Shown here piece by piece: positions 26,435 to 55,015 of a stretch of DNA of 64,000 nucleotides (within the stretch, counting starts at the first letter, position 1; every line of letters begins with the position of its first letter). Location of the stretch: assembly GCA_964426555.1 (NCBI GenBank), contig CAYRQJ010000001.1, forward strand, positions 117,633-181,632, written 5' to 3'. Made by a program: the position numbers and the translations under genes. Origin of the DNA: an uncultured Candidatus Saccharibacteria bacterium. GTDB lineage: Bacteria; Patescibacteriota; Minisyncoccia; Phycocordibacterales; UBA9973. The notes under the pieces were generated by a model. The model saw only the letters and a program-made list of their open reading frames with translations. It was not told the DNA's origin and made no database searches.

Positions 26435-29400
26435 GTGTTAAAATATAAACATAATATGAAGCGGAAAGCCTTTGGGGTAATAGCAACTTTTCTGGTTATG
26501 TTCCAGATGTTTTCTCCGTGGGGGATACAGATAAATAAAAACGGAGTTAGCGTTAAAGAGAATACAGTTTTAGCAGCTGAACCATTAGACCATGGAGTTA
26601 TAGCTCTATTAAAGGAGGGAACAAAAGATGGTCAAATTAACTTAACTATACTTAGTGACCCACTTTATAAATATGATGAATTTGAGGTTAAAGTCCTTTC
26701 TGGTACAACAGTACAAACTGAAATGTTTAAAGGCGCACCAACAGATAAATCTATTACTCGAAATGAAGTTGGTGTGGTTGGTTTTGATAAAGATGGCAGC
26801 CAGGCAAGATTATATTTAAGAATCGATTATGAAATAAAAAATTCTAAATTTAAAACTTCAATGCTAACTGATGTTGCTGATCCTAAAATAGCAGTCAGGG
26901 TTCCATATTATGAAGCATTAAATCCTACAAACAAAAAAGATGCCTGGAACTACATTGGTCCGACCAATACAGATATTACTGATATTGAAGAAAATGGAAC
27001 TACTTTTATATCAGCTAGCGAAGCAAGTGGTAATAATTTCAAACTAAAATGGGGGGTTCTTTCTTCTAAGAGCTCTTCTACTAACTTAATATTACCTATG
27101 CCGTCTACTCTTAATGGTGCAGATGATGACTCAATAGCTTGTACAGGTGGATTAAAAACATTAGAAACAAAAAAGAAGTTACGGTTTGCACAAAACAACA
27201 AAGACTACCCAATATATGAACATTCTTGTTCTAATTTAATAGACATCACAAAAACATTACCAAAAAAAGAAAATGGTGTTTCAAAGTATGTTGCAAATTT
27301 TGATAAAACTTCTTGGTATAAAAATATTTCTTTGAATTTTAATTTCCCATTTACTGGGAAATTACATAGTTTTTATTTATACAACAACCCAGATGATATA
27401 TCAACAGATCTTCGTGGAACTTGTGATCTTGAGTGGTGTTTTCAAGATTTTCAAATCACAAAATTAGAAGCTGTTAAAGATGAAAATGGCACACCTGCTC
27501 TTGCGGCAGATGTATCAATATTTTTAGACGACAAAGAAATTGATGATTTTAACCCTTTTGAAGATGTTGGTGATGAACCTGGAAAATTAGATTCCAAAGA
27601 CAGACCAAACAGTTGGGAAGGATGGTTACTTGAAAAAAGAGTTGATAGCAGGGATCCATCTGTTGGTGGTGGTTTATCAAATGATAAAGATACATCTCGT
27701 GGGTTTTGGCTTATTTATTCAAAAGACAAAGATACTTTGAGTGACGGTATCGGAAATAGAGAAGTTATAAATCTGGGAGATTATTTGTTTGGTGGCGACA
27801 AGGTCCCAATTTCTCCAGTTGTAGTAAAAAAACAAAATGGATTAGCTTTTAAAGTATTAATCCCAGCAGAACTTGGTAAAACATATTATGCAAAACTGTA
27901 TTCATACAGAATAGATAAGGACAATTATATAAAAAACGAAAAGGCTAACTCTACAACAAAATCATATACTATGCCGGCTACAGTAGAAGAGATTACTCAA
28001 ACTGCTAGAGATGGGGCAATAATAGAAAATGGACAAGAAAAAGAATTAGTTGCCGACCCAGCATGGCTTCCAGCATGTGGGCTTGGTTTTTGGCCTGCAG
28101 AAGATGGATCAATTACTGGTTGTGCTATTCAAATATTTTATTATTTAGTGTTTGTTCCAACTGCTTATTTATTAGCAGCAGCAGGTACTGTTCTGGATTG
28201 GATTTTAGTTTATGCAATTTCACCAGTAGCGTATAAAGCTCAGTATATTGTAGATAGTTGGAAATTTGTAAGAGATGTATGTAATTTATTCTTCATCTTT
28301 ATGATGATATATCTTGCATTCAAACTTATACTTAGTATTGGGCATCATACAAAACAATTAATTGTAAACACACTAATTATTGCAGCGGTAATTAATTTTT
28401 CTTACCCATTAACTACTGTAATTATTGATGTTTCCAACATTACAGCAAGACAATTATATTATAATTCTTTCCCTAAAGAAGATACGTTGAATGGAAAACC
28501 TTATGGGCTTTCTTCAACAGTATCAAAAGGTTACAACCCTCAACAAATAGTTATAGATGGTTTAGATAAAAATAGTAACGATTTAAAAGATACCAAAGAA
28601 AACAATAAAGGAACAATTTTTATGATTCTTTTAATGGGGGTAATATTTAATATTATTGCCATGATAATATTCTTAAAAATAGCATTATTGTTTATATACC
28701 GTATTCTTGGTCTTGTTTTTGCAATTATACTTTCACCATTTGCTGTATTTTCATTTTCTATGGATAAAGAACAGCGTAGTAAATTAAAAATGGTTGGTTT
28801 TGACACATGGTTGTCTGGATTACTACAAGATGCATTTAAGGCTCCAGTATTTTTATTCTTTATGCTTATAATGGTGCTTTTTATAAAACACAATCCATTC
28901 AAGGCAGCATTTGGGTCTGATGTTAATGGTTTAGAATGGTGGGCAAGTTTAATTATTCCTTTTATGCTACTAGTTGGATTTTTAAGTCTAATTCATTCTA
29001 TAACTAAATCAATGTCTTCATCGTTAGCTGAAATGGCTGGGGGTGTGGTAATGAAGGGAATTGGTGCAGTAGCCGGAGTAGCTGCAGGGGGGTTAGCATT
29101 AGCTGGCAGTGGATTAATTGGTAAAGGGATGACTAAACTTGCTGGATCTGGAATGGGCCAAAGAATTATGGACCGCGCTGCTACTGGTAAAGGGCTTGGT
29201 GGTTTTATTGCTCGCCAACAAGCCAAAGCTATTCGTGGAATGCAAGCAGGTAGTTTTGATTTAAGACAAAATGGTGTAGCTAACGCAGTAAGTAAAGCAA
29301 CAGGGATGAACTTTAATCTTGGGGCATCTATGATTGGACTTGGTACAGCAAAAACTGCTGGTGGTTTCGTAGAAAGTGTTGAAAGAAAAAATAAAAAGAG

Positions 29401-30430
29401 AGAAGAATTTGTTAAAATGTTAGAGTGGAATAAAAATTTAGCAGAAAAACTAAAAGAACGCAAGGCGGATAAGGATACAGAGAAGGAAGGTTTAGAAACT
29501 GAAGCTAAGGATAAAAAAGCATTTATAGAAGAAAGAGATGCAGCTTTAAAAAATAGTGAGAAAAGTAAAAAAGATGCAGACGAAAGAGTAGGTGATTTTG
29601 AAAAATTACAAGATCTTTTAGCTAGAAGAACCGACTTTGTTTCAACAGGTAAACCAGTAACAGAAATTGATGTTCAAATTGGTAGAATAGAGGCAAAGTT
29701 AAGTGGTGGTCGTGGAAGTTTAAGTACTATTGACCCAACAACTAATACAAGGACAGTAAACGCTGTATTTGGAGCATTAAAAACAAATGCTGACGCTGAA
29801 AAAGTTAGAGCAAAGAGAGCAAAAGATGTTAATCAAGGCAGACTAGATATTGCTAAACAATCATTAAAAGAGAATAATGATGCAATAAGAAGTTTGGATA
29901 AAGAAATATCCGCACTTACTAAAGCAATTGAAAATGTAAAAAATAACCGTAAAAATGGTTATGCTCATATGATACGAAACAAATCTGGTCATATATTCCA
30001 TAAAGATACTTACACAGAAAAATATAACCACGGACACAAAACACCATTAAACGCTGCTGAAATGGCAAAATTTACTTCAACTTTTGGAACTCTTAGTGGG
30101 GATATGGCAAACATTATAACAAGAGTTGACGAGCATTCACATGAAGCAAATAATAAATTTAAAGCAAAAGTATTATCAGTAAATACAGCACTGGGGTTAT
30201 TAGCAGGAGCATTTACTGGTGGGGCAGGTGCTATTGCAGCCGGAATAGCTGCTGGGGGGCTAGTTGGAATATCTCGTACATACCAACCAGGTAACGAACA
30301 TTATGGCGTCGCACATGATCCAGCTGCTTGGCACCCACACCCTCATGATAATTATCACCCACCTACCGGTGGAGGAGGTGGCGGCGGAGGTGGCGGAGGT
30401 GGCGGAGGCCACGATAGTCACGGACACTAA
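26435..30430 (+). CDS. VirB6/TrbL-like polytopic giant protein of the T4SS-like locus
   Basis: Signal peptide, ~550-aa extracytoplasmic domain, central block of ~7 TM helices, coiled-coil Lys/Glu-rich region, Gly/Ala-rich segment, and the tail PPTGGGGGGGGGGGGGGHDSHGH. Confidence 0.55.
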   Translation: MLKYKHNMKRKAFGVIATFLVMFQMFSPWGIQINKNGVSVKENTVLAAEPLDHGVIALLKEGTKDGQINLTILSDPLYKYDEFEVKVLSGTTVQTEMFKGAPTDKSITRNEVGVVGFDKDGSQARLYLRIDYEIKNSKFKTSMLTDVADPKIAVRVPYYEALNPTNKKDAWNYIGPTNTDITDIEENGTTFISASEASGNNFKLKWGVLSSKSSSTNLILPMPSTLNGADDDSIACTGGLKTLETKKKLRFAQNNKDYPIYEHSCSNLIDITKTLPKKENGVSKYVANFDKTSWYKNISLNFNFPFTGKLHSFYLYNNPDDISTDLRGTCDLEWCFQDFQITKLEAVKDENGTPALAADVSIFLDDKEIDDFNPFEDVGDEPGKLDSKDRPNSWEGWLLEKRVDSRDPSVGGGLSNDKDTSRGFWLIYSKDKDTLSDGIGNREVINLGDYLFGGDKVPISPVVVKKQNGLAFKVLIPAELGKTYYAKLYSYRIDKDNYIKNEKANSTTKSYTMPATVEEITQTARDGAIIENGQEKELVADPAWLPACGLGFWPAEDGSITGCAIQIFYYLVFVPTAYLLAAAGTVLDWILVYAISPVAYKAQYIVDSWKFVRDVCNLFFIFMMIYLAFKLILSIGHHTKQLIVNTLIIAAVINFSYPLTTVIIDVSNITARQLYYNSFPKEDTLNGKPYGLSSTVSKGYNPQQIVIDGLDKNSNDLKDTKENNKGTIFMILLMGVIFNIIAMIIFLKIALLFIYRILGLVFAIILSPFAVFSFSMDKEQRSKLKMVGFDTWLSGLLQDAFKAPVFLFFMLIMVLFIKHNPFKAAFGSDVNGLEWWASLIIPFMLLVGFLSLIHSITKSMSSSLAEMAGGVVMKGIGAVAGVAAGGLALAGSGLIGKGMTKLAGSGMGQRIMDRAATGKGLGGFIARQQAKAIRGMQAGSFDLRQNGVANAVSKATGMNFNLGASMIGLGTAKTAGGFVESVERKNKKREEFVKMLEWNKNLAEKLKERKADKDTEKEGLETEAKDKKAFIEERDAALKNSEKSKKDADERVGDFEKLQDLLARRTDFVSTGKPVTEIDVQIGRIEAKLSGGRGSLSTIDPTTNTRTVNAVFGALKTNADAEKVRAKRAKDVNQGRLDIAKQSLKENNDAIRSLDKEISALTKAIENVKNNRKNGYAHMIRNKSGHIFHKDTYTEKYNHGHKTPLNAAEMAKFTSTFGTLSGDMANIITRVDEHSHEANNKFKAKVLSVNTALGLLAGAFTGGAGAIAAGIAAGGLVGISRTYQPGNEHYGVAHDPAAWHPHPHDNYHPPTGGGGGGGGGGGGGGHDSHGH

Positions 30431-30443
30431 TAAATAAATTTAT

Positions 30444-31190
30444 ATGGATGAAGAAGAAAACATACAATTAGACGAACAAGCTCAAGCAGAATCAATGAGA
30501 GATGCTATTCATGAAAGAATTGCTTCTCTTGATGCACCAGTTCGTAATTTACTGCTTAGTGATGATTATGTATTAAAGCTAAGAGACATGGTGACTAAAT
30601 ATAGCTTAGACGCAACAAACACTCAAAATCTTGAAGAGATTACTACAAATTATTTACTTGGGGTGATTCGTCCAGAAGAATTAGAACAAACATATAGAGA
30701 AGGTTTATCTAGTTTAACGAAAGATAATATAAATTCTATCTATACAGAAATAAAAAACAATATTTTAAATTCTGTATGGCAAACAATAATAGATGCTTGG
30801 GCTGAAGATGACGAAAACGAACAAATTTATAATGAACTTCTAGAAATGGACGAGATTCCACTACCACCTAATCAACAAAAAGATGGGTCAAAGACATTGG
30901 GGGACAAAGTAAACAAAGAAATAATTAGAAATACAGAATTAGAATTACAGAAAAAACAAGAACAAGTTGAAATAACCCCAGAAATTAAACCTTCAGGGAT
31001 TATAACCAACGAAGAATTAGTAAAAAAGATTAGCGAAGAAAAAAGTGTAGAAAAATCAGCTTGGGATAAAAAAGCTGACGACGTAGATGCAAATAACAAT
31101 GCAACAGTAACTAGTAGAAACAATGTGGACACCAGCTTACCAAAAATATCTCTAAAAAGTTCGGATCCATACAAAGAAACCATAGAATAA
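30444..31190 (+). CDS. Acidic hypothetical protein
   Basis: 248 aa, Glu/Asp-rich, no TM. Confidence 0.45.
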   Translation: MDEEENIQLDEQAQAESMRDAIHERIASLDAPVRNLLLSDDYVLKLRDMVTKYSLDATNTQNLEEITTNYLLGVIRPEELEQTYREGLSSLTKDNINSIYTEIKNNILNSVWQTIIDAWAEDDENEQIYNELLEMDEIPLPPNQQKDGSKTLGDKVNKEIIRNTELELQKKQEQVEITPEIKPSGIITNEELVKKISEEKSVEKSAWDKKADDVDANNNATVTSRNNVDTSLPKISLKSSDPYKETIE

Positions 31191-31214
31191 TCCCGCAATG
31201 CGGGGTTATTTTTA
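31190..31214. terminator. Rho-independent terminator
   Basis: cccgcaatgcgggg plus T-run. Confidence 0.55.
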
Positions 31215-31281
31215 TACAACATTTTATATAATACTAGTTAAAATGTTATTAATAAAATTTTATATGCTATAATTATTTTAT

Positions 31282-31710
31282 ATGCAATTCCAAATGCCAA
31301 GATTTTTGGACATTGAAGACAAAGTCATTGGGCCTTTGACTTTTAAACAATTCATATTTTTGGGTGGAGGTTTTGGTTTGGCATATGTGTCATACAAATA
31401 CTTGGGTTGGACATGGGGTTTTCCTTTGATTGGACTATTTTTATTCCTGGGAATAAGTTTGTCTTTTTGGAAACCAAACAGTCGTCCAGCAATTGTAATG
31501 TTTCAAGCTTTTTTAAAGCATTACACAAAAAACCATATGTATGTTTGGAAACGCCCTACAAAAGCTGAAAGAATTAAAAAAGAAGAAAAGAAAGACGAGG
31601 GTACAAATATACAAAACAAAGACATAAATAAAAATAAAATTGAAGCATTAGCATGGAGTCTAGATGTAATGGATAGAGTTGGATCGGGAATTAAAAAGGA
31701 AGAAAATTAA
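31282..31710 (+). CDS. Small two-TM protein, VirB3/PrgI-like (by position and topology)
   Basis: Two adjacent TM helices, and the gene sits directly upstream of VirB4. Confidence 0.4.
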   Translation: MQFQMPRFLDIEDKVIGPLTFKQFIFLGGGFGLAYVSYKYLGWTWGFPLIGLFLFLGISLSFWKPNSRPAIVMFQAFLKHYTKNHMYVWKRPTKAERIKKEEKKDEGTNIQNKDINKNKIEALAWSLDVMDRVGSGIKKEEN

Positions 31711-31711
31711 C

Positions 31712-32368
31712 ATGGCAATTAACGCACCTAAAAGTCAAGAATTTATACCTATAGAAAAAATCCGCGATGGTGTGGTTATACTTAAAGATGGGTCATACCG
31801 CAGTGTACTGTTGTGTACTGCTATTAATTTTACATTGCGGTCTGAAGACGAACAAAAAGCTATTCTTTCTCAATTTCAGTCATTTTTAAACTCACTGGAT
31901 TTCTCTGTACAAGTAGTAATTCAGTCTCGTAAATTTGATATAAGACCTTATTTAATAACACTGGAAGACAGATTAGATAAAATAGAAGAACCATTACTAA
32001 AATTCCAAACAAAAGAATACATAGAATTTATTCGCGAACTTACTAGCTCGGTAAATATAATGTCAAAACATTTTTATGTTGTTGTGCCATATTCCGAAGC
32101 AGTACTGGAAACTGCCGGGGCTTTTCAAAAATTATTTGGTGGAGTAGGTGGTTTAAAGAAAAAAGAAACATTTGAAGAAGCCGACTGGAACGAAAAAAGA
32201 AACCAGCTTGAACAAAGACTGGGAATTGTGGTATCTGGTTTGGGAAGATGTGGTGTTCGTAGTGAAGCATTAGATACCCAAGGTTTGATCGAATTGTATT
32301 ACAAGACTTTTAACCCTGGCGACGCAGCACAACATGTGCCAAAGCAAGCGATTGATGAATCCCGTTAG
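31712..32368 (+). CDS. virB4: VirB4-like ATPase, N-terminal segment (the gene is split by an inserted element)
   Basis: IPIEKIRDGVVILKDGSYRSVL... matches the VirB4/TrbE N-terminal pattern. It ends at a TAG inside the element's inverted repeat. The start was set at the ATG immediately after the upstream stop. Confidence 0.55.
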   Translation: MAINAPKSQEFIPIEKIRDGVVILKDGSYRSVLLCTAINFTLRSEDEQKAILSQFQSFLNSLDFSVQVVIQSRKFDIRPYLITLEDRLDKIEEPLLKFQTKEYIEFIRELTSSVNIMSKHFYVVVPYSEAVLETAGAFQKLFGGVGGLKKKETFEEADWNEKRNQLEQRLGIVVSGLGRCGVRSEALDTQGLIELYYKTFNPGDAAQHVPKQAIDESR

Positions 32369-32480
32369 AAGCCACGATCACAATTATGGTATTATTATAA
32401 TGATATGAGATATATGAAAGAGTTTAGTAAGTTTAATTTTATGCAAAATTGCGATTGTATCGTGATCTGCTTCTAACGGG
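32361..32480. mobile_element. MITE-like element copy 2, inserted inside virB4
   Basis: TIR CCCGTTAGAAGC (32361-32372) and GCTTCTAACGGG (32469-32480). Flanks are atgaat / atgggt. The upstream ORF stops in the TAG of the left TIR, and the downstream ORF starts at the ATG immediately after the right TIR. Confidence 0.55.
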
Positions 32481-34298
32481 ATGGGTATATTTTCAGGATT
32501 ATTTGGTGGTAATAAAAGGGAAGATTTAAACGATCTTGGATCTCTTTCTGTTCGCCCGGAAGATATTTACACTTCTGCTCAACTTGAACTACAAGACATT
32601 ATTGCTCCATCTGCATTACAAATAATGCCAACAGCGCTGAATTTGGGGGATATGATAGTGCGTTCATTTTATGTTGTGGGTTACCCCAGTATTCTTACAG
32701 ACAATTGGTTAACTCCTATTATTAATCTGGACCGAGTTTTTGATATTGCTATAAACATAAACCCAATTGATACTGGTAAAATTTTAATCCAATTCCAAAG
32801 AAAAGTTGCCGAAGTCCAAAGCCAAATCTCTGAGCGAGAAAGTAAAGGAATGGTTCGTGACCCAATGCTAGAAGCAGCGTATAGAGATTTAGAACAATTA
32901 CGTGATGGGCTACAACAAGCCCAAGAGCGAATGTTTGAAGTTGGGTTATACATTAGTATATATGCGCAAAACGAAACCGAATTATTCAAAGCTGAAAATG
33001 AAATAAAGGGTCAATTAGATTCTCAAATGGTTTTTCTAAAACCGGCAACATTCCAGCAAGACACAGCATTCCTGTCTAGTGTGCCAACTGGCGTAGACGA
33101 TTTAAAGGTTGTTCAAAAAATGAATACTGAACCATTAAGTAGTACTTTTCCTTTTGTATCTTTTGATTTAACAGGCAACAAAGGAATATTGTATGGTATT
33201 AACCAACATAATAATTCATTAATTATTTTTGACCGTTTTTCTTTAGAAAACTATAACTCGGTAACTTTTGCAAAATCTGGGTCTGGTAAATCTTTTGCTA
33301 CAAAGTTGGAAATTTTAAGATCTTTAATGTTTGATACCGAAGTAATCGTAATTGACCCAGAAAAAGAATACGAATATTTGTCTGATGCAGTAGGCGGAAG
33401 ATATTTTGATATTTCTCTTTCTTCTGACCACCATATTAATCCTTTTGATTTACCGGTACCAACAAAAGACGAAACAGCAGGGGACGTATTGCGTCAAAAC
33501 ACAATTAATCTTGTGGGGCTATTTCGTGTAATGCTGGGCGGGCTAACTCCTGAAGAAGATGCAATAATCGACCGCGCAATTACTGAAACTTATGCATTAA
33601 AAGACATTACCGTAGATTCAGATTTTACAAATTTAGAACCACCACTATTGTCTGACTTTGCTGTAGTACTGGCTGGTATGGACGGGACACAGTCTATCCA
33701 AACAAAGTTGGAAAAATATACAACCGGATCTTGGTCTGGGTTTTTAAACAAACCAAGTAATGTAGACATCAACCGTAAATTCGTAGTTTTTTCTATTCGA
33801 GATATGGAAGACGAACTAAAGCCAGTGGCAATGTATATTGTTACTCACTTTATTTGGAACGAAGTAAGAAAGAATTTAAGAAAGCGTTTAATGGTGGTAG
33901 ACGAAGCGTGGTGGATGATGAAAAATGAAGACACTGCTAGCTTCTTATATAGTATTGCAAAGCGTGGGCGTAAATATTATCTTGGTTTAGCTACAATTAC
34001 TCAAGACGTAGAAGATTTCTTAAAATCTCCTTATGGTAGACCAATATTGTCTAACTCTTCAATGCAACTATTGTTAAAACAATCGCCAACATCTATAGAT
34101 ATGTTAAAAGAGTCTTTTAATTTAACAGACTCTGAAAAATACACACTACTTGAAGCAAATGTAGGGGAAGGTATTTTCTTTGCTGGATTAAAACATGTAG
34201 CAATTAAAATTATTGCTTCTTATACTGAAGAACAAATTATCACATCTGACCCAGCCCAAGTATTGGCTATCCAAGCAGCAAAAGCTCAAGGTAAATAA
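32481..34298 (+). CDS. virB4: VirB4-like ATPase, C-terminal segment (Walker A/B)
   Basis: Walker A FAKSGSGKSFAT and Walker B MVVDEAWWMM (DEAW), typical of VirB4/TraC. Confidence 0.8.
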   Translation: MGIFSGLFGGNKREDLNDLGSLSVRPEDIYTSAQLELQDIIAPSALQIMPTALNLGDMIVRSFYVVGYPSILTDNWLTPIINLDRVFDIAININPIDTGKILIQFQRKVAEVQSQISERESKGMVRDPMLEAAYRDLEQLRDGLQQAQERMFEVGLYISIYAQNETELFKAENEIKGQLDSQMVFLKPATFQQDTAFLSSVPTGVDDLKVVQKMNTEPLSSTFPFVSFDLTGNKGILYGINQHNNSLIIFDRFSLENYNSVTFAKSGSGKSFATKLEILRSLMFDTEVIVIDPEKEYEYLSDAVGGRYFDISLSSDHHINPFDLPVPTKDETAGDVLRQNTINLVGLFRVMLGGLTPEEDAIIDRAITETYALKDITVDSDFTNLEPPLLSDFAVVLAGMDGTQSIQTKLEKYTTGSWSGFLNKPSNVDINRKFVVFSIRDMEDELKPVAMYIVTHFIWNEVRKNLRKRLMVVDEAWWMMKNEDTASFLYSIAKRGRKYYLGLATITQDVEDFLKSPYGRPILSNSSMQLLLKQSPTSIDMLKESFNLTDSEKYTLLEANVGEGIFFAGLKHVAIKIIASYTEEQIITSDPAQVLAIQAAKAQGK

Positions 34299-34322
34299 AT
34301 AAAGCTGTGATATAATAATTAG

Positions 34323-35267
34323 ATGAAAAGGCTTTTTGTAATGCTTTTTATGTTATCTAGTTTTTTAATTACTAACTCAAATGTATTTGGGCAAACTTCT
34401 AGCGCCGAACCAAATATAGACATTATAGCCAGCCCTAATGACCCAGAACCGGGGGAAGAAATCACAATTAGTCTTAGTAGTTACGAAATAGATTTGGGAT
34501 TAGCTTATATAAAATGGGCTGGAGAAAACAACACAAAAGAAGGTTATGGGGAAACAGAATTTACAGTAAACGCACCTAACAACGACAATGATTCATATAC
34601 TGCCCGAGCTTTTATAAAAACCAGTGATGGACAAAATATAGAAAAATCTATTACTGTATATACAAATACATATGATTTAATTTGGGAAGCCGTTGATACA
34701 AAATATCCTCCATTTTATGCTGGTAAAAAGTTACCAATTAAAGAAAATACGCTAAGAGTATCACTACTACGACCAACAACAAGTAAACAATATTCTTTTA
34801 AGTGGCAAAGAAATGGTAAAAGCATTACTGGTAAAGGTGGGATGCTTAACCCATGTGTAGAATTTGATAATACGGAAATTCAAAACAAAGAAAATGTTTC
34901 TGTAAAAATATCTAATGGTACAAACCAAGCTGAAAGAAATATTGATATACCATTAAACAAACAAAGAGTTTTGTTTTACGAATACATTCCACAATTTGGA
35001 TTAAACACAAATAATGCTTTGAATAAAAATTCAATTGGGTACGACGGCACAGTATCAGTACTGGGGTTGCCTTTAGGGTTAAGCAATAATGCAAAGACTG
35101 AATTTAGTTGGAATTTATCTGGAGATGATGTAAATAGTCAAGAAAATCCTTTTTTACTTTCTTTTGGTAAACCTGAAGGCAAGGGAGTTGTTAAAATAAC
35201 TGTAAGAATAGAAAATTTAAAATCTCTTTATCAAGAATTTAAAGGTGTTTTAAATTTAGAATTTTAA
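34323..35267 (+). CDS. Secreted hypothetical protein of the T4SS-like locus
   Basis: Signal peptide MKRLFVMLFMLSSFLITNSNVFG. Confidence 0.5.
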   Translation: MKRLFVMLFMLSSFLITNSNVFGQTSSAEPNIDIIASPNDPEPGEEITISLSSYEIDLGLAYIKWAGENNTKEGYGETEFTVNAPNNDNDSYTARAFIKTSDGQNIEKSITVYTNTYDLIWEAVDTKYPPFYAGKKLPIKENTLRVSLLRPTTSKQYSFKWQRNGKSITGKGGMLNPCVEFDNTEIQNKENVSVKISNGTNQAERNIDIPLNKQRVLFYEYIPQFGLNTNNALNKNSIGYDGTVSVLGLPLGLSNNAKTEFSWNLSGDDVNSQENPFLLSFGKPEGKGVVKITVRIENLKSLYQEFKGVLNLEF

Positions 35268-35367
35268 TATGAATCCGCCAAAACTTTTCATTTTAAATAA
35301 ACAAAAGTTTAGGAGGATGAATCCGCCAAAAATTTTTATTTGGTATTAATAATAAATTAAACTTTTC

Positions 35368-36450
35368 ATGAAAAAACTAAGAAAAATTAGGCGGATGAAT
35401 TTAAAAAAATTATTTACAATCATTTTTATACTAACTAGTATTGTTTTTTTGGGGAACATTACACATGCTGAAGAATTACCAACCGCCAAAACATACACCG
35501 AGCAAACCGGAATAGACGCATCTGCTGGTAGCTATGAACTAATCAGCCCAATAGGGAACTTAAGTAAAATACCAGATGTTAGTGATAATGGATTCTCTGA
35601 CTTTGTTAATCTACTTATTCGTATAGCTATAGCATTAGCAGGGGCTATAGCTGTAGTAATGCTAATAATAGGCGGTATACAGTATATGGGTACCGATAGT
35701 GTATGGGAGAAGGGGGAAAGTAGAAGTAGAATGACCAGTGCTATTATTGGTTTAGTGTTGTTATTAACATCTTATTTTATATTGTTTAATATTAATCCAG
35801 ATTTGGTAAATATTCGTATAGGGGGTCTGCGGGTTAGTGAAGAAGAGTGGGAAAAAGTAGAATTTGATAAAGGAGTAAGACCCTGGATAGGTTCTACTCC
35901 GGTAGATATAAGCAAAGCTTCAGAAAAAAATATTATTCAAAGCAATATTACTACTTATGATGTATCTTTAAAAAAAGCAGCAGTAGCAACAGGGTTATCT
36001 TGTACAGATTTAAAGGCTTTTGCTTTTGTGGAAACAGGTTTCGACAAAGATGTTGTTAATGGAACAAAAACTAGTAGTAGTGGAGCTGCTGGTCTTATGG
36101 CTTTAATGCCAGCTACGGGGAAAAATTATGGATGTAATACTGCTGCTGAACTAAGTGACCCTGAAAAAAGTGCTCTTTGCGGCGCAAAGTTTTTAAAAGA
36201 ATTAAAAACAAAAGCATGTAATGGTGCTGAAAAAAACGATGTTTGTAATACCACAGACACAAAATATATAAGTGCGGCTTATAACGGTGGCCCTGGGGTT
36301 AATGCTCAATCTAAAGACTGTCCAAATGAAAAAGTTACTCGCTGGCAGTGTCACACAAACCAGGGTGGATTAAAAGAAACAGAGTACTATACTGTTAAAA
36401 TAGCTGCAAATCAAGAACAACTAAAGAAAAAAGGGTGGGGTTGTGACTAA
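35368..36450 (+). CDS. VirB2/TrbC-like two-TM pilin module fused to an SLT-domain lytic transglycosylase (VirB1-like)
   Basis: Signal peptide, then FVNLLIRIAIALAGAIAVVMLIIGGIQYMG...RMTSAIIGLVLLLTSYFIL (two helices, VirB2-like pattern). C-terminal SLT motifs ETGF, AAGLMALMPATG and AYNGG. Confidence 0.7.
   Translation: MKKLRKIRRMNLKKLFTIIFILTSIVFLGNITHAEELPTAKTYTEQTGIDASAGSYELISPIGNLSKIPDVSDNGFSDFVNLLIRIAIALAGAIAVVMLIIGGIQYMGTDSVWEKGESRSRMTSAIIGLVLLLTSYFILFNINPDLVNIRIGGLRVSEEEWEKVEFDKGVRPWIGSTPVDISKASEKNIIQSNITTYDVSLKKAAVATGLSCTDLKAFAFVETGFDKDVVNGTKTSSSGAAGLMALMPATGKNYGCNTAAELSDPEKSALCGAKFLKELKTKACNGAEKNDVCNTTDTKYISAAYNGGPGVNAQSKDCPNEKVTRWQCHTNQGGLKETEYYTVKIAANQEQLKKKGWGCD
35500..35827. repeat. 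327-bp repeat, identical by eye (copy A), encoding the pilin-like module
   Basis: Same sequence as 38571-38898, as far as I can check by eye. Confidence 0.85.
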
Positions 36451-36520
36451 TATTTCTTTGTTTGATTAGTTTTATAAAAAATAAATAGTTTTTATAAAAG
36501 ATAAATGTTAAAATGTTTAT

Positions 36521-37771
36521 ATGCACAAGGGGCAAATGCTTCGAATATCTTTGTTTATCCTTATCTTAGGGATGGGAGCTTTTTTGATAATTAGAAACAT
36601 TACGCTAAAAAAACAACTAAAAAATGGAGAAATTGCGGAAATAAAACCCCGGGATTTTTTGCCGTTTGGAGACAAAGCAAAAGATTTTTTTAATAATGCA
36701 ATAGACAAAGTAACCGGTAACGAAGAAAACGACAATCAGCAAAATCAAGAAAATAAGCTTAGATTAAACAAGGTTTCTGCCGATGTTGCTGGTAGCGCAG
36801 TAGTAATAATAGACGACGAAATTGCAGGGCCAGTTGGAACAGATAAAAATGGTAATAACATATACGACAAAATTACTGCTGTGCAATATGTATTAAAGGA
36901 AAACGGATTTGTTTATAGCTATATCCCAAAATACAAAAAAAGTTATTTAATTTCAGAAACAAAAATTCCACACATTCAAAATGCTAAAATTTCAGATGAT
37001 GGAAATATTGTTTTATTTCAATATTTAGATTCAGATTTAAGTACTGAAAAATCTGTATTGGGTAAACTGGGGGACAGTGCTGTAAAAATTCTTCCGGACA
37101 ATATAATATCTTACGATATGAATCAAAGTGGTGATTTTGTTTATGTAAAAAAATCAAAAACAGGGTCAATTATTTCTTTAATTAATAATTTTGGGAATGA
37201 AGTAAATTTATATGTATCAACAGTCACAGAATGGAATGTAAAATTTATTAATAATAATGAATTATTACTAACTACAAAAGCATCAGAATATTTTAATGGG
37301 GTTTCTTATGTTTATAATATAAGATCAAAATCAATGACTCGTTTATGGGGAGGATTTTCTGGACTAACTACAAATATTTCCAGTGGTGGTAATTATATAT
37401 TACGAGCAGTTACAGAGCAGTCTGGACCAAAGCTTGCACTGTATGACAATAAAACTAAATCAGTTTTTGATTTAAACAAGCTGGGCATGGTTGAAAAGTG
37501 TGCTTTTAGTAAAGACGAAACAATTTTAGTATGTGCACTACCAAAAGAATTTCAGAATATGGCATATCCAGATAGTTGGTATTTAGGAGAAATCTCAACT
37601 AAAGATAATTTTATAAAATATACTACATTAAACAAAAACGAAACTATTCTTCCTGGTTTTAATGATATTACAGAAGATTTTGATGTAATAAATCTAAACA
37701 TTAGTAACACTGGAGACATTATGTCTTTTATCAACAAAAAAGATTCGTCTCTTTGGGTATATGAAGAATAA
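36521..37771 (+). CDS. Membrane-anchored hypothetical protein (N-terminal TM, large extracytoplasmic domain)
   Basis: N-terminal TM LRISLFILILGMGAFLII, no motif found. Confidence 0.45.
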   Translation: MHKGQMLRISLFILILGMGAFLIIRNITLKKQLKNGEIAEIKPRDFLPFGDKAKDFFNNAIDKVTGNEENDNQQNQENKLRLNKVSADVAGSAVVIIDDEIAGPVGTDKNGNNIYDKITAVQYVLKENGFVYSYIPKYKKSYLISETKIPHIQNAKISDDGNIVLFQYLDSDLSTEKSVLGKLGDSAVKILPDNIISYDMNQSGDFVYVKKSKTGSIISLINNFGNEVNLYVSTVTEWNVKFINNNELLLTTKASEYFNGVSYVYNIRSKSMTRLWGGFSGLTTNISSGGNYILRAVTEQSGPKLALYDNKTKSVFDLNKLGMVEKCAFSKDETILVCALPKEFQNMAYPDSWYLGEISTKDNFIKYTTLNKNETILPGFNDITEDFDVINLNISNTGDIMSFINKKDSSLWVYEE

Positions 37772-39377
37772 ATTTTTAAAAATTTTATTTGTTTTTGGAA
37801 TTTTATTTTATAGTATTAATTCTTTTGCTGCATGGAGTAATATTGGTAATAGTGTTTCCTTTATGGAAACCAGTAGTAATGGAAATGATACTGCTATTGT
37901 TTATTCTGGGTGTGGAGTTAGTGATGGTGGTGCACAAAACTGGGCAAATGCATTATATGAATCAAAATTAAAAACAAAAGGCATAAAATATCTCTATGCT
38001 GTGGCCTTACCTAGTGGAGCAAATAATTGTGCTGTATCTGTTGCAAATATCTCTAATTCAAAAATAGTTACTGATTTAGAATCAAAAAATACATCTGGGC
38101 AAATTAAAAATATTATAGTAATAATGCATTCATCTGGAGCATTCACAGCACAAGATTTTTTAAGACAAATCAATAATAAGTCAGCATTTAATAAAATAGT
38201 TACTGCTTTTAATATAGATGGGGCAAATATTAGTGGGGTAGCCTTAAAGAAAACATATTTAGTAATTGGTAAATCTGGAACAATCAAATCTTTAAATCAT
38301 GATATCGGTATTATAAACGACGAAACTATTGATTTAATTTTACCAACTGGATGTAGTACAGCTTTTTGTACACACATGAGACTGGTAAATAGTACTGGGG
38401 GGAATAGCACAGTAGATGCAGATTATAAAAATACGACAGCTAGTAATGTAACTAGTTCATATTTAGATAAACTACCTAATGTATCAGTTAGCTCTAGTGG
38501 CGGTACAACCCTTGTGGTTGGTGGTGGAGTAGCAAATACATCAACAACTCTAACGGCTAAAACTTTTAATGAGCAAACCGGAATAGACGCATCTGCTGGT
38601 AGCTATGAACTAATCAGCCCAATAGGGAACTTAAGTAAAATACCAGATGTTAGTGATAATGGATTCTCTGACTTTGTTAATCTACTTATTCGTATAGCTA
38701 TAGCATTAGCAGGGGCTATAGCTGTAGTAATGCTAATAATAGGCGGTATACAGTATATGGGTACCGATAGTGTATGGGAGAAGGGGGAAAGTAGAAGTAG
38801 AATGACCAGTGCTATTATTGGTTTAGTGTTGTTATTAACATCTTATTTTATATTGTTTAATATTAATCCAGATTTGGTAAATATTCGTATAGGGGGCTTA
38901 ACTGTAAATGAAGAAGCTTGGGATATCGAATTTGGTGATGGAGGATCACAGTATTTAACTAATGGCAGCTTAACTCCTGGATCTACAACAAAAAATTGTC
39001 CAGAAGGTTTTGTGAATACTGGTGTTTTTGTGGCTTGTAAAAGTATTGCTAAAAATATTGAAAACATGGTCGCAGCTGCAAAAAAAGATGGCATAATTTT
39101 AGGTGGGGGAGGATTTAGAACAAAAGAACAACAAATTGAATTAAGAAAGAAAAATTGCGGAGGCGATGTCGATACAAAAAAATCTACACAATGTAATCCA
39201 CCAACTGCTAAACCCGGAACTTCAAGACACGAAAGCGGAAAAGCTTTTGATATCACATGCGATGGTAAAAGTATGGCAGGTAGTAAATGTTTTACCTGGT
39301 TACAAAACAATGCAGCAAAGTATGGATTAAAAAACTACAAAGCCGAACCATGGCACTGGTCAACAGATGGACATTAA
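37761..39377 (+). CDS. Secreted multi-domain protein: N-terminal domain, VirB2-like two-TM module, C-terminal M15 (VanY/L-Ala-D-Glu peptidase-like) zinc peptidase
   Basis: Signal peptide. The internal 108 aa are identical to the 35368 gene. The C-terminus has SRHESGKAFD (SxHxxGxAxD) and EPWHW (ExxH) zinc ligands of peptidase M15. Confidence 0.65.
   Translation: MKNKFLKILFVFGILFYSINSFAAWSNIGNSVSFMETSSNGNDTAIVYSGCGVSDGGAQNWANALYESKLKTKGIKYLYAVALPSGANNCAVSVANISNSKIVTDLESKNTSGQIKNIIVIMHSSGAFTAQDFLRQINNKSAFNKIVTAFNIDGANISGVALKKTYLVIGKSGTIKSLNHDIGIINDETIDLILPTGCSTAFCTHMRLVNSTGGNSTVDADYKNTTASNVTSSYLDKLPNVSVSSSGGTTLVVGGGVANTSTTLTAKTFNEQTGIDASAGSYELISPIGNLSKIPDVSDNGFSDFVNLLIRIAIALAGAIAVVMLIIGGIQYMGTDSVWEKGESRSRMTSAIIGLVLLLTSYFILFNINPDLVNIRIGGLTVNEEAWDIEFGDGGSQYLTNGSLTPGSTTKNCPEGFVNTGVFVACKSIAKNIENMVAAAKKDGIILGGGGFRTKEQQIELRKKNCGGDVDTKKSTQCNPPTAKPGTSRHESGKAFDITCDGKSMAGSKCFTWLQNNAAKYGLKNYKAEPWHWSTDGH
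38571..38898. repeat. 327-bp repeat, identical by eye (copy B)
   Basis: Same sequence as 35500-35827. Confidence 0.85.
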
Positions 39378-39383
39378 TAAATA

Positions 39384-39408
39384 AAACCCGCAATTGCGGG
39401 TTTTATTC
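39384..39408. terminator. Bidirectional rho-independent terminator
   Basis: aaaacccgcaattgcgggtttt. Confidence 0.6.
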
Positions 39409-39876
39409 TTCTTTATAAGTTACAACTATTCTTCTTTCTTTACCTAAGCCAGTAGATTCTGTAGTTATGTTTTTGTCTTTTTCTAAGAATGTATGTATTA
39501 TTCTGCGTTCATATCCATTCATTGGGTCCAGCTCGATGCTGGATTTAAAAAATTTTGCACGCTCTGCCATCATATGGGCTTTTATTTTTAAATCCTCGAT
39601 ATGTTTTTTTTGAAAATCGTTAACATCAAGACCAACAGGGGTAGGGGTGTCAGTTTCTTTTAGGCCTGTTTCCATAAATCTATGTAGCAGAGTTACAAGT
39701 GAATGCAATGTTTCTCCATCTTTACCAATAAGTATTCTTCCGTCTCCCGATTTTATACTAATAGTGTTTAAACCACTTTCTTCGTCATATATCGTTTCAA
39801 TAGTCTCAATTTTAGCACCAATATTGGAAACAAGCTCATTTATGAAGTTTTGTGCATCTAAAATAGTCTTAGCCAT
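39403..39876 (-). CDS. khpB: Jag/KhpB-like RNA-binding protein (KH + R3H)
   Basis: C-terminal R3H-like GYERRIIHTFLEKDKNITTESTGLGKERRIVV. It is located downstream of yidC as in the jag-yidC cluster. Confidence 0.7.
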   Translation of the reverse strand: MAKTILDAQNFINELVSNIGAKIETIETIYDEESGLNTISIKSGDGRILIGKDGETLHSLVTLLHRFMETGLKETDTPTPVGLDVNDFQKKHIEDLKIKAHMMAERAKFFKSSIELDPMNGYERRIIHTFLEKDKNITTESTGLGKERRIVVTYKEE

Positions 39877-39926
39877 ATTTAGACTTTACCATAGACAGAT
39901 ATCTTGAGCAAGCTTGTAAATTAAGC

Positions 39927-40673
39927 TTATTTTAGTACTTCAGCTTTAGTATATACTTTGCCTTTATTTTTTATATGTTTAGCGATAGATCTTTCTTGAA
40001 CTATTGTAATAAGATTATTTACAACCCAATACAGTGCAACTGCGGCTTGGAATTTGTAAGCAATAAATATAATTAAAACAGGAAACACAAACTTCATTTG
40101 AGTTTGCATAGATTTTTGTAAATCAGCAGAAAATCCTTTTGCTCCACTGTTTGCATTGGCCTGCATTTTTTGAGTAGGGGAAAGATAAATCTGTAAGAAT
40201 TGAGAAACACCAGCAAGAATAGCTAAAGCAACAGAATGTACTTTTGTTAAATCAAGAATACCTAAAAACATTGTATTTAGTGTTTGGGGAGCATTCACAA
40301 ATGAATAAAGTGGTGCATTTGTAAAATCCATACCTTTTAAGAATACATAATACAAACCAAAAATAATCGGCAGTTGCACTATCATTACCAAACATCCTGA
40401 AAAAGGATTAACTTTTTTTTCTTTATATAAAGCAAATGTTGCTTTAGCTTCTTCTTCTTTAGAAAGACCTTGTTTTTTTAGTTCAGCTAATTCACCTTGA
40501 ATACTAGCTAATTCAAGCTGAGAAACAATAGCTTTTCTAGAAAGCGGATATAAAATAACTTTAATTAGAATAGTTAAAATTACAATTGCAAAACCAAGGT
40601 CTCCAAAAGTAACGTAAGAAAGTATTAAAACTAAAATGTTTAAAAGGGGTGTATAAATAAATGTATTCCACAT
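39927..40673 (-). CDS. yidC: Membrane protein insertase YidC (short monoderm type)
   Basis: 248 aa, five TM, YidC/Oxa1 core, in the rnpA-yidD-yidC context. Confidence 0.85.
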   Translation of the reverse strand: MWNTFIYTPLLNILVLILSYVTFGDLGFAIVILTILIKVILYPLSRKAIVSQLELASIQGELAELKKQGLSKEEEAKATFALYKEKKVNPFSGCLVMIVQLPIIFGLYYVFLKGMDFTNAPLYSFVNAPQTLNTMFLGILDLTKVHSVALAILAGVSQFLQIYLSPTQKMQANANSGAKGFSADLQKSMQTQMKFVFPVLIIFIAYKFQAAVALYWVVNNLITIVQERSIAKHIKNKGKVYTKAEVLK

Positions 40674-40693
40674 ATCGCTCCAGTGTAACAGAA

Positions 40694-40921
40694 CTAGGGC
40701 AGTGGGTCAAAGTTATTTTTTTGCCAAGGATGACAACGAATTATTCTTTTTATAGTTAGGCTTGTGCCTTTTAAAAAACCATATTTTATATATGCCTGTT
40801 TCCCATATTCTGAACAACTAGGATAAAATACACAAACTGCATTTTTTCTTTTAAAAATACCTGTATCTCTTGAAAGATATTTTTGGTAAAAATTTATCAA
40901 AAAAACCATTATTTTTGACAT
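40694..40921 (-). CDS. yidD: Membrane protein insertion efficiency factor YidD
   Basis: FYPSCSEY ... RCHPW motifs. Confidence 0.85.
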   Translation of the reverse strand: MSKIMVFLINFYQKYLSRDTGIFKRKNAVCVFYPSCSEYGKQAYIKYGFLKGTSLTIKRIIRCHPWQKNNFDPLP

Positions 40922-41229
40922 AAAATTCCTTCAAGTTCTTTTTTTAAGTCTAAATATGACAAATTATCAATGTTTACCTTTAAAAATAGGCTAAAGTGTC
41001 CATTTTTCTTATTATTTAGTTCTCTTATTATAGAAAAAACCCTTCTTTTGGCTCTATTTCTATCTACTGCCTTTTTATATAGCTTTTTAGTCACACTAAG
41101 GCCGTATTTATTGATGTTTTGGCGAGATTCTGCCCAGGTAATGGAAAAAAGAGTACTATGTACTCTTTTACCAGCTAATTTAAGCTCTTTTAAATCAAAT
41201 GTATTAAGCCGGTTTTGCCGAGGTAGCAT
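40909..41229 (-). CDS. rnpA: RNase P protein component
   Basis: Basic ~106-aa protein starting MLPRQNRL, with the RNR-like motif KAVDRNRAKRR, adjacent to rpmH. Confidence 0.8.
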   Translation of the reverse strand: MLPRQNRLNTFDLKELKLAGKRVHSTLFSITWAESRQNINKYGLSVTKKLYKKAVDRNRAKRRVFSIIRELNNKKNGHFSLFLKVNIDNLSYLDLKKELEGILCQK

Positions 41230-41230
41230 A

Positions 41231-41365
41231 TTAAACAGCTAATTTTGCGCGACCCTTGCGGCGACGTGCTTGTAGGATCTTTTGACCATCCTTACTAGCC
41301 CCACGAACTAAAAAACCATGGGTTTTTGCGCGCTTTCTTTTGTTTGGTTGATAGGTAACTGACAT
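41231..41365 (-). CDS. rpmH: 50S ribosomal protein L34
   Basis: Minus-strand translation MSVTYQPNKRKRAKTHGFLVRGASKDGQKILQARRRKGRAKLA. It is below the ORF-track size cutoff. Confidence 0.8.
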   Translation of the reverse strand: MSVTYQPNKRKRAKTHGFLVRGASKDGQKILQARRRKGRAKLAV

Positions 41366-41453
41366 ATAAAGCGATAATAACACTAAAGCTTATAAAAATC
41401 AACCCCGTGGTGAAGATTTGTAAAATATCTACTACTAGGGTTGATTTTTTAGT

Positions 41454-41483
41454 TTATCCAGAGTTATACACAACTTACCCACA
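41454..41483. promoter_or_regulatory. Three tandem DnaA-box-like 9-mers in the rpmH-dnaA intergenic region (oriC / dnaA promoter region)
   Basis: TTATCCAGA, TTATACACA and TTACCCACA each differ from TTATCCACA at one position. They are spaced ~10 bp apart. Confidence 0.5.
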
Positions 41484-41537
41484 ACTCTTTAACATTTATG
41501 GTGTGTTGTTTAGCTATAAAAAAAGTATAATAACTCT

Positions 41538-42896
41538 ATGCAAAATGATTTAAGCGGACAACAAGATCTTTGGAAGGAATGTTTAACATTATTAGAAAGA
41601 ATTGTTTCAAAGCCTAATTTCACAACTTGGTTCAAACAAACACACATAGTTAAAATTGAAGATGGTTTGGTTTTTATTGGTGTACCAAACGAATTTGCAA
41701 AAGACTGGTTACAAAACAAATTCCAAAAGGTAATATTAAAGACACTGGTAGATAATTCACCTGTTATAAAAGGTGTAGAGTTTATTGTTTCAAAATTTGA
41801 ACCTGAATCTAGTATTAAAAATATAGCTCCTAAAATAGCTACCCAACAATCTTTACCTATACAGGATATGTATGTAAACAAAGAAGATGGTTTAAACCCA
41901 AGATATACTTTTGAAAACATGATAGTTGGTTCATTTAATGAACTAGCGAATGCTGGAGCCCAAGCAGTGCTTCGTAGTCCTGGTATTTTATATAATCCAT
42001 ATTTTATTTATGGTAATACTGGTCTTGGAAAAACTCATATGATAGAAGCAGTAGGGAACTCTATAAAAAAACAATATCCTGGTAAAAAGGTTTATTACAC
42101 AAGTGCAGAAAAGTTTGTTATTGAGTGTGTACAAGCTGTGCAAAACAAAACAATGGGTACTTTTAAAGACAAGTACCGGATTTATGATGTTTTAATTATG
42201 GATGATATCCAAATGATAGGTAAGGGCGAAAAAATTCAAGACGAATTATTCCATTTATTTAACATGTTATACGAAGCAAATAAACAAATTGTATTTTCTT
42301 CAGATAAACATCCTAATTATATTCCAGGCTTAGAAGATCGTCTTCGTTCAAGATTCTCCCAAGGAATGATAGTAGATGTGCACGAACCAGACTATGAATC
42401 CCGTGTTGCTATAATCCGTACAAATCTGTCTAAATTAGGCGTAGGACTACCCACAGAGAGCATAGAATACATTGCAGCATCCGTTGAAGGAAACATTAGA
42501 GAGCTAGAAGGAAATGTAAAAACAATAGCCCTGCAAGCTGATATAAAGAAACGAAATTTAACCATTCAAGAAATAAAAGATGTATTAAAAAACAGTGTTA
42601 AATCACAAAAACAAATATCCGTAGAAGAAGTAGTAAAAGTAATAGCATCTTTTTACCATATAGAAAGTGAATCTGTATACGAAAAAACAAGAAGAAAAGA
42701 AGTTGTACGAGTTAGACAAATTGTTATGTATATATTAAGAGAAGATTTTAATTTATCATTTCCACTAATCGGACAAAAAATGGGTGGTAAAGACCATACA
42801 ACTGTAATTCATTCTTATGAAAAAATAAAACAAGAAATGGAAAAAGACACTGGATTAATGTCTGAAATGGAGAGGATAAGAGCATTATTCAAGTAG
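41538..42896 (+). CDS. dnaA: Chromosomal replication initiator DnaA
   Basis: AAA+ Walker A GNTGLGKTH, box VII, and a C-terminal DNA-binding domain with the DnaA signature. Confidence 0.95.
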   Translation: MQNDLSGQQDLWKECLTLLERIVSKPNFTTWFKQTHIVKIEDGLVFIGVPNEFAKDWLQNKFQKVILKTLVDNSPVIKGVEFIVSKFEPESSIKNIAPKIATQQSLPIQDMYVNKEDGLNPRYTFENMIVGSFNELANAGAQAVLRSPGILYNPYFIYGNTGLGKTHMIEAVGNSIKKQYPGKKVYYTSAEKFVIECVQAVQNKTMGTFKDKYRIYDVLIMDDIQMIGKGEKIQDELFHLFNMLYEANKQIVFSSDKHPNYIPGLEDRLRSRFSQGMIVDVHEPDYESRVAIIRTNLSKLGVGLPTESIEYIAASVEGNIRELEGNVKTIALQADIKKRNLTIQEIKDVLKNSVKSQKQISVEEVVKVIASFYHIESESVYEKTRRKEVVRVRQIVMYILREDFNLSFPLIGQKMGGKDHTTVIHSYEKIKQEMEKDTGLMSEMERIRALFK

Positions 42897-43084
42897 GATA
42901 AAATGTGAATAAGTAAAAAAATATAATACAAATAAAAAAGTTATAAGATAATGTGTTAATAAGTAAAAAAATAATTTAATTTAAAAACCTTGTAATATAA
43001 AGATAAAAAAAGTTTTCCCTAATTAACAGCCTTAATAGATAGTAATAATTTAATTTAAGATTTTATGCAAATAAATGTGGATAA
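42897..43084. promoter_or_regulatory. AT-rich dnaA-dnaN intergenic region with DnaA-box-like repeats (candidate oriC / DNA-unwinding element)
   Basis: Two direct repeats TGTGAATAAGTAAAAAAAT / TGTGTTAATAAGTAAAAAAAT. A perfect TGTGGATAA lies at 43076-43084 at the dnaN start. The composition is extremely AT-rich. Confidence 0.5.
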
Positions 43085-44153: not shown

Positions 44154-44165
44154 AATAATATGGAT

Positions 44166-55014: not shown

Positions 55015-55015
55015 G

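Follow-up and report, generated by a model that had tools for sequence, protein, structure and literature searches.

In a stretch of 64,000 nucleotides from an uncultured Candidatus Saccharibacteria bacterium (assembly GCA_964426555.1, contig CAYRQJ010000001.1, positions 117,633 to 181,632; hereafter the window), two adjacent open reading frames (ORFs) of a type IV secretion system (T4SS) encode the N-terminal and the ATPase parts of a VirB4-type protein and are separated by a short inverted-repeat element. The original prediction for this locus was that the element had split a single virB4 gene. Our analysis strongly favors a different history, in which trsD and virB4 are ancestrally separate genes, an element resembling a miniature inverted-repeat transposable element (MITE) has inserted at the virB4 start codon, and both genes are intact.

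The upstream ORF, which is trsD-like, runs on the plus strand from an ATG at 31712 to a TAG at 32366-32368 (31712-32368) and encodes 218 amino acids, among them the sequence ILKDGSY. The downstream ORF, the virB4 ATPase gene (32481-34298, plus strand), encodes 605 amino acids with the Walker A motif KSGSGKS and the Walker B motif VVDEAWW. Ahead of both lies a gene for a PrgI/VirB3-like small membrane protein (31282-31710, plus strand), the first of the prgI-trsD-virB4 core. The stretch between the two ORFs, bounded by CCCG...CGGG, is 120 bp long (32361-32480) and reads CCCGTTAGAAGC...GCTTCTAACGGG. The coordinates, the 120-bp element, the KDGS region and the DEAW core had all been described correctly; the upstream ORF, which had been given as 219 residues, has 218.

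The element at virB4 occupies 32360-32481 (122 bp, termini T...A). It is presumed to be flanked by a 4-bp target duplication, in a register taken from the family statistics given below, whose left copy TGAA (32356-32359) now serves as codons of the TrsD tail and whose right copy TGGG (32482-32485) forms bases 2-5 of virB4. A perfect inverted repeat of 14 nt (ATCCCGTTAGAAGC, 32359-32372 and 32469-32482) takes in the AT of the virB4 ATG. As had been proposed, the upstream frame ends in the left repeat: the last trsD codons, TCC CGT TAG, sit inside the left arm, which supplies the stop about 5-7 nt in. The proposal that the second ATG abuts the right repeat was also borne out and can be extended, as the ATG follows directly after CGGG and its first base is the element's own terminal A (32481). 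The element has stops in all frames, no ORF, and the terminal inverted repeats and small size of a MITE. A promoter scan found no forward promoter-like site within it. Its predicted RNA fold has an energy of -39.5 kcal/mol (z=-5.1) and pairs the AU of the virB4 AUG. Logan SRR12762274 and GCA_020049755.1 carry this filled junction without a single base difference, so that this allele, present in three assemblies, is real and no assembly artefact.

The identity of the two ORFs as parts of a VirB4-type protein was confirmed by profile and homologue alignments. In NCBIfam model NF045971 (CD1110-family VirB4, 752 positions), the upstream ORF covers positions 2-129 and the downstream ORF positions 178-732. 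The fused 797-aa homologue P0242 aligns to the upstream ORF over residues 1-210 (41% identity) and to the downstream ORF over residues 230-791 (54% identity), and the expectation that the two would align as contiguous halves of a full-length VirB4 held. The virB4 product passes the curated cutoff of NF045971 (386.2 bits against 325), gives a Pfam P-loop_TraG match (7.6e-27), and contains GSGKS and DEAW. The full-length VirB4 architecture, with N domain and ATPase in one polypeptide, is not what is found here, the N-domain positions lying on the separate 218-aa ORF; this virB4 is the short form typical of Patescibacteria.

With the gene order PrgI-like, 218-aa ORF, VirB4, the upstream ORF is recognizable as the TrsD published for the T4SS of Patescibacteria. 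TrsD is a VirB4-N-terminal homologue of ~200 aa encoded beside virB4 in a prgI-trsD-virB4 cluster; it is the commonest T4SS component of Patescibacteria, with 2,272 homologues of which 1,664 adjoin virB4, and is essential in S. epibionticum ML1 (PMC12102498). The match of TrsD to NF041427 (TrsD/TraD) is weak (21.9 bits, where the cutoff is 200), a local Pfam search returned nothing, and a PDB sequence search with TrsD found no match; a precomputed match to PF26593 (TraC-like) exists for the best 120 TrsD homologues and for the identical protein of L193 and L194. The PrgI-like gene matches Pfam PF12666 (PrgI) at E=7.8e-6 and 26.8 bits, slightly below the 27-bit cutoff, and the gene order around it is the same in the relatives L001, L003 and L126. 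The TrsD/TraD and TrsE/TraE (VirB4) pair of the staphylococcal plasmid pGO1/pSK41 and the TrsD-VirB4 pair of Patescibacteria share the same plan, a ~200-220-aa VirB4-N homologue upstream of a shortened VirB4, and in both a PrgI/VirB3-like gene precedes, as it does here. Compared with TrsD-VirB4 pairs, the sole peculiarities of the window are the 122-bp element and the altered last five residues of TrsD; nothing essential differs.

Comparison with relatives indicates that the two-gene layout is ancestral and that the element did not split virB4. The 120 proteins most similar to the product of the upstream ORF (53-95% identity) all stand alone, at lengths of 207-221 aa. Representatives at 36-57% identity are again mostly 200-250 aa with few fused, and the fused forms (797 and 898 aa) are confined to distant representatives. 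Metagenomic relatives comprised 64 loci, with both genes readable in about 50, and in every readable one a stop is followed by a separate gene of ~600-650 aa. These relatives usually separate trsD from virB4 by -8 to +30 nt, the closest ones having TAAtATG, and the element is absent from the trsD-virB4 junction of all 64. In the sister lineage L001, whose VirB4 is identical to that of the window at 603 of 605 residues (99.7%; DNA identity about 90%), the element-free gap is 2 nt (...CAATAAttATGTCT... / ...GAACAATAAttATGTCTATATTT); in L003, also element-free, it is 1 nt (...AAATAAtATGGCA). The separation of trsD and virB4 in Patescibacteria has already been published and hence is not new.

These relatives bear directly on the claim that a once-continuous virB4 was recently cut in two by the element and is now either tolerated in that state or becoming a pseudogene. 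Fused VirB4 proteins with this N-domain are known (P0242 and P0161), and the proposed removal of the element in silico does produce one frame of 820-821 codons when 121 or 124 nt are deleted. Deletion of 120 or 122 nt, however, does not join the frames, and neither does deletion of the excision unit inferred for the family (the 122-nt element plus one 4-nt duplication, 126 nt); the joining at 121 or 124 nt is a one-in-three coincidence. All close and moderately distant relatives have two genes and no element, with L001 and L003 refuting the split, and TrsD is a published stand-alone component (PMC12102498). The substitutions also speak against decay. Between the window and L001, virB4 has 145 nucleotide differences, which alter 136 codons synonymously and 2 non-synonymously, residue 2 at the junction itself being one of the two amino-acid differences (Gly here, Ser in L001), while the first 213 codons of trsD carry 44 synonymous and 9 non-synonymous changes. 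Both genes are intact and under strong purifying selection, neither looks like a pseudogene, and the suggestion of a pseudogenization in progress is not supported. We consider the splitting of a continuous virB4 very improbable.

A single VirB4 could in principle also be made if ribosomes bypassed the element as they do in T4 gene 60. The stop codon stands right after a potential take-off site at the foot of a strong hairpin, and joining across 124 nt is in frame. Against this, matching take-off and landing codons are lacking in the required frames, element-free relatives encode two proteins, each with its own stop and start, and the 50 nt crossed in gene 60 are less than half of the distance here. 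Bypassing is scarcely credible here.

The native TrsD tail and stop (AEEEQ*, as in L001) are gone, the last five residues are altered, and the window TrsD ends AIDESR*; after insertion, the native tail and stop would have been lost or remodelled, leaving trsD to stop at the left-arm TAG. A parallel case is found in L126 (TrsD 79% identical), whose trsD/virB4 junction also carries an element, of the same arm subtype and with a degenerate right end, and whose TrsD likewise ends ...PESR* at the arm's TAG. The inner stems of the two elements differ by a compensatory change, CACGAT/ATCGTG in the window and CGCGAT/ATCGCG in L126. The junction is filled in the window and in L126 and empty in L001, L003 and L127-L131. 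Because there are closer relatives without the element, and because excision cannot restore a deleted tail, we infer from these two cases that two independent insertions are more economical than one gain followed by several precise losses. Other, unrelated inserts of 100-170 nt occupy the same junction in L142, L146, L160, L168-L170, L178 and L183, that of L146 being a palindromic GCCTAAGGC-type repeat. The trsD/virB4 junction is a recurrent landing place for small elements.

The element belongs to a family whose ends read YCCCGTTAGA...TCTAACGGGR, with four complete copies and one solo end in the window. Four CCCGTTAGA(N)TCTAACGGG pairs occur in the window against none in 100 shuffles, and the motif is therefore not due to chance. 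A survey with one exact 9+9-nt pattern, using one genome per species in a 596-Gb collection, returned at least 120 loci; the pattern fixed the two 9-mers only, and the flanks are therefore unbiased. All family counts given from here on are among the matches listed. The base outside each end is complementary to its partner in 130 of 137 copies (C..G in 66, T..A in 64), and exact 4-bp direct repeats flank 82 of 137 copies, compared with 7 of 137 when partners are shuffled. These repeats have the form T-N-N-A (counted strand-neutrally, TGAA/TTCA 30, TAAA/TTTA 16, TGGA/TCCA 13 and TTGA/TCAA 8). C..G-ended elements have ATG on the left and GTG on the right, as in ATGAAC[..]GTGAAG; therefore, the outermost base belongs to the element and the duplication is 4 bp. 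Filled and empty sites can be compared at two loci, the virB4 junction and a site downstream of dnaN, where the window reads TAAaataatATGGAT[element]ATGGATcat and L191 reads TAAaaataaaaactgtATGGAAcat. The element is a mobile, MITE-like, non-autonomous inverted-repeat transposon.

About 12 nt at each end make up the conserved part of these elements. Their interiors are almost unrelated between genomes: an all-against-all BLAST comparison gave almost no clusters, and no useful alignment or covariance model was obtained. Stem positions 10-12 vary, yet about 93% of copies keep Watson-Crick pairs there; informative positions showed no strand bias between G-U and A-C pairs, which would distinguish constraint on RNA from constraint on DNA. 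Many interiors among L004-L123 carry a CGGGA(W) motif that lies 15-35 nt from the start-distal end, has the same sequence as the start-proximal terminus and could pair alternatively with the 5' end. In one subtype, the start-proximal arm is immediately preceded by a GGAAATC-N3-4-GATTTCC hairpin.

Candidate Phyla Radiation (CPR)/Patescibacteria account for about three quarters of the matches (Saccharibacteria, Nomura-, Kaiser-, Kerfeld- and Paceibacterota, and others). Another 30 of the 120 come from metagenome-assembled genomes (MAGs) labelled Omnitrophota, Planctomycetota, Desulfobacterota or Brocadia; loci so labelled with the same CCCGTTAGA...TCTAACGGG ends include L009, L014, L015, L030, L045, L082, L108 and L121, among others. 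By the flank listing, which was not tallied, the repeats of the non-CPR-labelled copies are mostly TAAA/TTTA. These copies may be due to horizontal spread, mis-binning or, in part, chance matches.

We found no earlier description of this inverted-repeat family in Rfam or in the literature searched. At gathering score, the only Rfam match in the whole window is a tRNA, and two elements compared at E<=10 gave nothing meaningful. In full-text literature the terminal 9-mers turned up in primers and shRNAs and nowhere else, and no relevant literature on MITEs in CPR/Patescibacteria was found. Integron attC sites were considered on account of the words GTTAGA/TCTAAC and ruled out, as attC has the opposite order (RYYYAAC...GTTRRRY). 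Hairpin elements of the IS200/IS605 type and REPINs (paired repetitive extragenic palindromic, or REP, sequences) were ruled out because the flanking repeats vary with site.

Among known small repeats, similar elements are Correia/NEMIS of Neisseria and ERIC/IRU of enterobacteria, which share the small size (65-125 bp), terminal inverted repeats, short duplication, many copies and lack of coding capacity, and which also sit between co-transcribed genes and form a long hairpin in the mRNA. Correia and ERIC elements duplicate a TA target, whereas the duplication here is a 4-bp T-N-N-A; the termini here are YCCCGTTAGA, the interiors are near-unrelated, start codons are abutted and their first base rebuilt, and the hosts are CPR bacteria. 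Rickettsia palindromic elements (RPEs) are comparable as palindromic mobile elements of ~100-150 bp that reduced genomes tolerate inside or next to their genes. An RPE becomes an in-frame, translated part of its host protein, whereas the element here has stops in its arms and interior and sits between reading frames, which sets it apart from them. From REP/REPIN sequences, which lack a target duplication and have a conserved GTAG beside the palindrome, it is likewise distinct in its site-specific 4-bp duplications and CCCGTTAGA ends, and no Y1 transposase (REP-associated tyrosine transposase, RAYT) was seen among the window proteins scanned.

The mobilizing enzyme is putative, and the CCC ends together with the 4-bp T..A duplication provide a lead toward the piggyBac/IS1380 type, since ends beginning CCC and a 4-bp T..A duplication (TTAA in piggyBac) are common to both. 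IS1380 transposases are prokaryotic relatives of piggyBac (PMC10813416), within a superfamily of DDE(D) transposons. Relative to piggyBac, the elements here have an extra Y/R base outside the CCC and a TNNA rather than a TTAA target, and the likeness is one of end and duplication features alone. End pairs 0.13-4 kb apart that enclose a transposase were absent from the fetched loci, and no transposase domain was present among the 26 window proteins scanned. A candidate autonomous copy, L075, proved to be an ordinary ORF that chances to start ATGATCCCGTTAGG.

The position of the virB4 element at a start codon is common in its family. The base after CGGG opens an ATG or GTG ORF of at least 60 codons in 64 of 138 copies (46%), against 0.97% at random positions of the same loci, and never does so on both sides of an element. 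Three of the four window copies abut a start in this manner, at virB4, at a HIT-family gene and at an 83-aa gene after dnaN. An asymmetric arm motif, HYCTRY-N-TCTAACGGG, lies in the start-proximal arm in 27 cases and in the distal arm in 3 (p=8e-6). Long co-directional upstream genes often stop in the left duplication copy, at the TGA of ATGA, in which case an ATGA stop/start overlap has been duplicated; otherwise the upstream gene stops at the left-arm TAG, as at virB4 and five other loci. A short frame beginning M-(N/D/S)-P-V-R starts at the left ATG copy and, in 16 of 50 copies, extends to the right-arm TAA or to a TGA overlapping the real ATG. The interior of this frame is stop-free in 19 of 64 copies against about 8 expected, a weak signal.

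On insertion, a 4-bp T-N-N-A target is duplicated, often the TGRA of ATGRA, and the element restores the first base of the start codon with its own terminal A or G, leaving the downstream gene intact. The earlier suggestion that the element evolved to limit polar damage receives some support across the family. A bolder proposal is that the CCCGTTAGA elements are an undescribed, phylum-spanning set of piggyBac/IS1380-like MITEs adapted to the translation starts of compact CPR genomes. The TG-R-A duplication, the donated first start base, which at times turns ATG into GTG, the stop in each arm, the M-(N/D/S)-P-V-R frame and the single orientation would then all be adaptations that keep neighbours expressed or under hairpin control, and not the outcome of survivorship. 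We regard this proposal as speculative and rather unlikely.

Several observations weigh against the history we prefer or against its extension to the family. The 4-mers flanking the virB4 copy differ, TGAA versus TGGG, with 2 of 4 positions matching, and insertion alone does not turn the L001 sequence into this junction, so that later remodelling must be assumed. No Shine-Dalgarno-like sequence was seen before the virB4 ATG. Neither the window nor ~1.3 Mb of fetched loci, a small search space, yielded an autonomous copy or a transposase with these ends. By our own estimate, ~500 chance matches to the bare pattern are expected in the 596-Gb collection, and part of the 137 copies surveyed, especially those in non-CPR MAGs, may be inverted repeats that arose by chance. 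Finally, the start-codon habit could reflect which insertions survive in very compact genomes and not an adaptation.

Translation of virB4 behind the hairpin may be coupled to termination of trsD. In such a model, the closing stem would pair the trsD stop region with the virB4 AUG region, and a ribosome that terminates at the 5'-arm UAG would unwind the 14 bp of this stem and expose the 3'-arm AUG, which would preserve what relatives achieve with TAAtATG. We offer this coupling tentatively, as a conjecture less likely than not; alternatively, the insertion does mild harm and is simply tolerated. A more severe version holds that the hairpin and a 112-nt spacer uncouple virB4 from trsD, so that little VirB4 is made and the system is decaying. 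The 1-2 nt spacing of the genes in relatives suggests that coupling matters, and the AUG is partly buried in the 14-bp stem with no visible ribosome-binding sequence. There is, however, no excess of non-synonymous change in virB4 or trsD, the same allele is found in three assemblies, the independent lineage L126 has an element at the same junction with trsD again ending at the arm TAG, and nearly half of the family copies lie at the starts of apparently intact genes. A decaying system is unlikely on these grounds.

The hairpin could instead be a cis-regulatory RNA that is passed on vertically and stands before certain genes, for example as a translational operator or a processing site, and not mobile DNA. 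The maintained pairing of stem positions 10-12, the 27 to 3 orientation bias relative to the gene, the potential alternative pairing of the internal CGGGA motif with the 5' end, and the excess of stop-free left-ATG frames are all consistent with such a role. Vertical inheritance, in contrast, is difficult to reconcile with the difference in presence and absence between close relatives at two loci, with 4-bp flanking direct repeats that change with site, with interiors unrelated between genomes, with copies beside unrelated genes in several phyla, and with the lack of an Rfam family match. We judge a purely regulatory, non-mobile origin to be quite unlikely, although a mobile origin and a secondary RNA role are compatible with each other and not mutually exclusive.

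The three other window copies have exact flanking repeats, TCCA, TGGA and TTGA. The second copy (117 bp, 21123-21239, minus strand; TCCA at 21119-21122 and 21240-21243) abuts the ATG of the HIT-family gene (20737-21123) and, read on the minus strand, has ATGGAT on both sides. This site is filled likewise in L124 and L125, and exact-protein look-ups gave only that filled allele. Upstream of the left ATGGAT copy, the minus strand of 21118-21280 reads TTGGCT-N14-TATAAT-N6-ATGGAT, which makes it probable that the ancestral HIT mRNA had no leader. A frame of 38 codons (MDPVRSF...SYF) now starts at the left ATG and ends at the right-arm TAA, 4 nt before the real ATG.

The third copy (82 bp, 44165-44246, plus strand; TGGA at 44161-44164 and 44247-44250) abuts the ATG of the 83-aa gene downstream of dnaN. 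Its site is empty in L191 (TAA...ATGGAAcat) and L192, and an exact-protein look-up for the 83-aa gene found nothing. The fourth copy (69 bp, 54947-55015; TTGA at 54943-54946 and 55016-55019) is G+C-rich, with a predicted fold of -46.2 kcal/mol. It lies between a terminator-like hairpin (54899-54931) and the sequence gTTGACA-N17-TATAAT, with an ATG (55052) 6 nt after, which looks like a leaderless-type promoter whose -35 box TTGA was duplicated by the insertion. The solo right-end remnant (ACATCTAACGGGAT, 7862-7877) has no partner arm that we could find; it follows an unrelated long imperfect hairpin (CACCTCACCCTCACCCTAACCCTCTCC ... GGAGCAGGGTCGGGGATGAGGTG) in a 270-nt intergenic region, both lying within 7720-7880.

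The T4SS cluster of this Parcubacteria/Nomurabacteria-like CPR bacterium is chromosomal (26435-44153 region) and located at the replication origin, adjoining yidC and jag/khpB (39403-40673, minus strand) and lying beside dnaA (41538-42896) and dnaN (43065-44153). A location near dnaA/dnaN in the origin region has been remarked upon for the T4SS clusters of Patescibacteria (PMC12102498). In two proteins, encoded at 35368-36450 and 37761-39377, a T4SS_pilin domain is joined to a cell-wall enzyme, which is an SLT transglycosylase in one and a VanY D-Ala-D-Ala carboxypeptidase in the other. The cluster is headed by a 1331-aa ORF (26435-30430) with no Pfam match whose C-terminus is a run of 14 glycines and then HDSHGH; judging by its hydrophobic stretches, it may be a membrane protein, perhaps a VirB6-like candidate.

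Taken together, the apparent split of virB4 is the normal, published arrangement of TrsD and VirB4, and it should not be annotated as a disrupted gene or a pseudogene. The part worth keeping is the element family, which is common in CPR genomes, with four copies in 64 kb and representatives in at least 120 species, and nearly half of whose copies adjoin start codons or stop/start junctions without harm to either gene. It offers a handle on the persistence of mobile DNA where genomes leave almost no room between genes, and possibly on translational coupling through hairpins, in bacteria that have so far been hard to manipulate. It also bears on the annotation of gene starts, including switches from ATG to GTG and spurious upstream ATGs. 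If the start-site habit is an adaptation, the family would deserve more attention.

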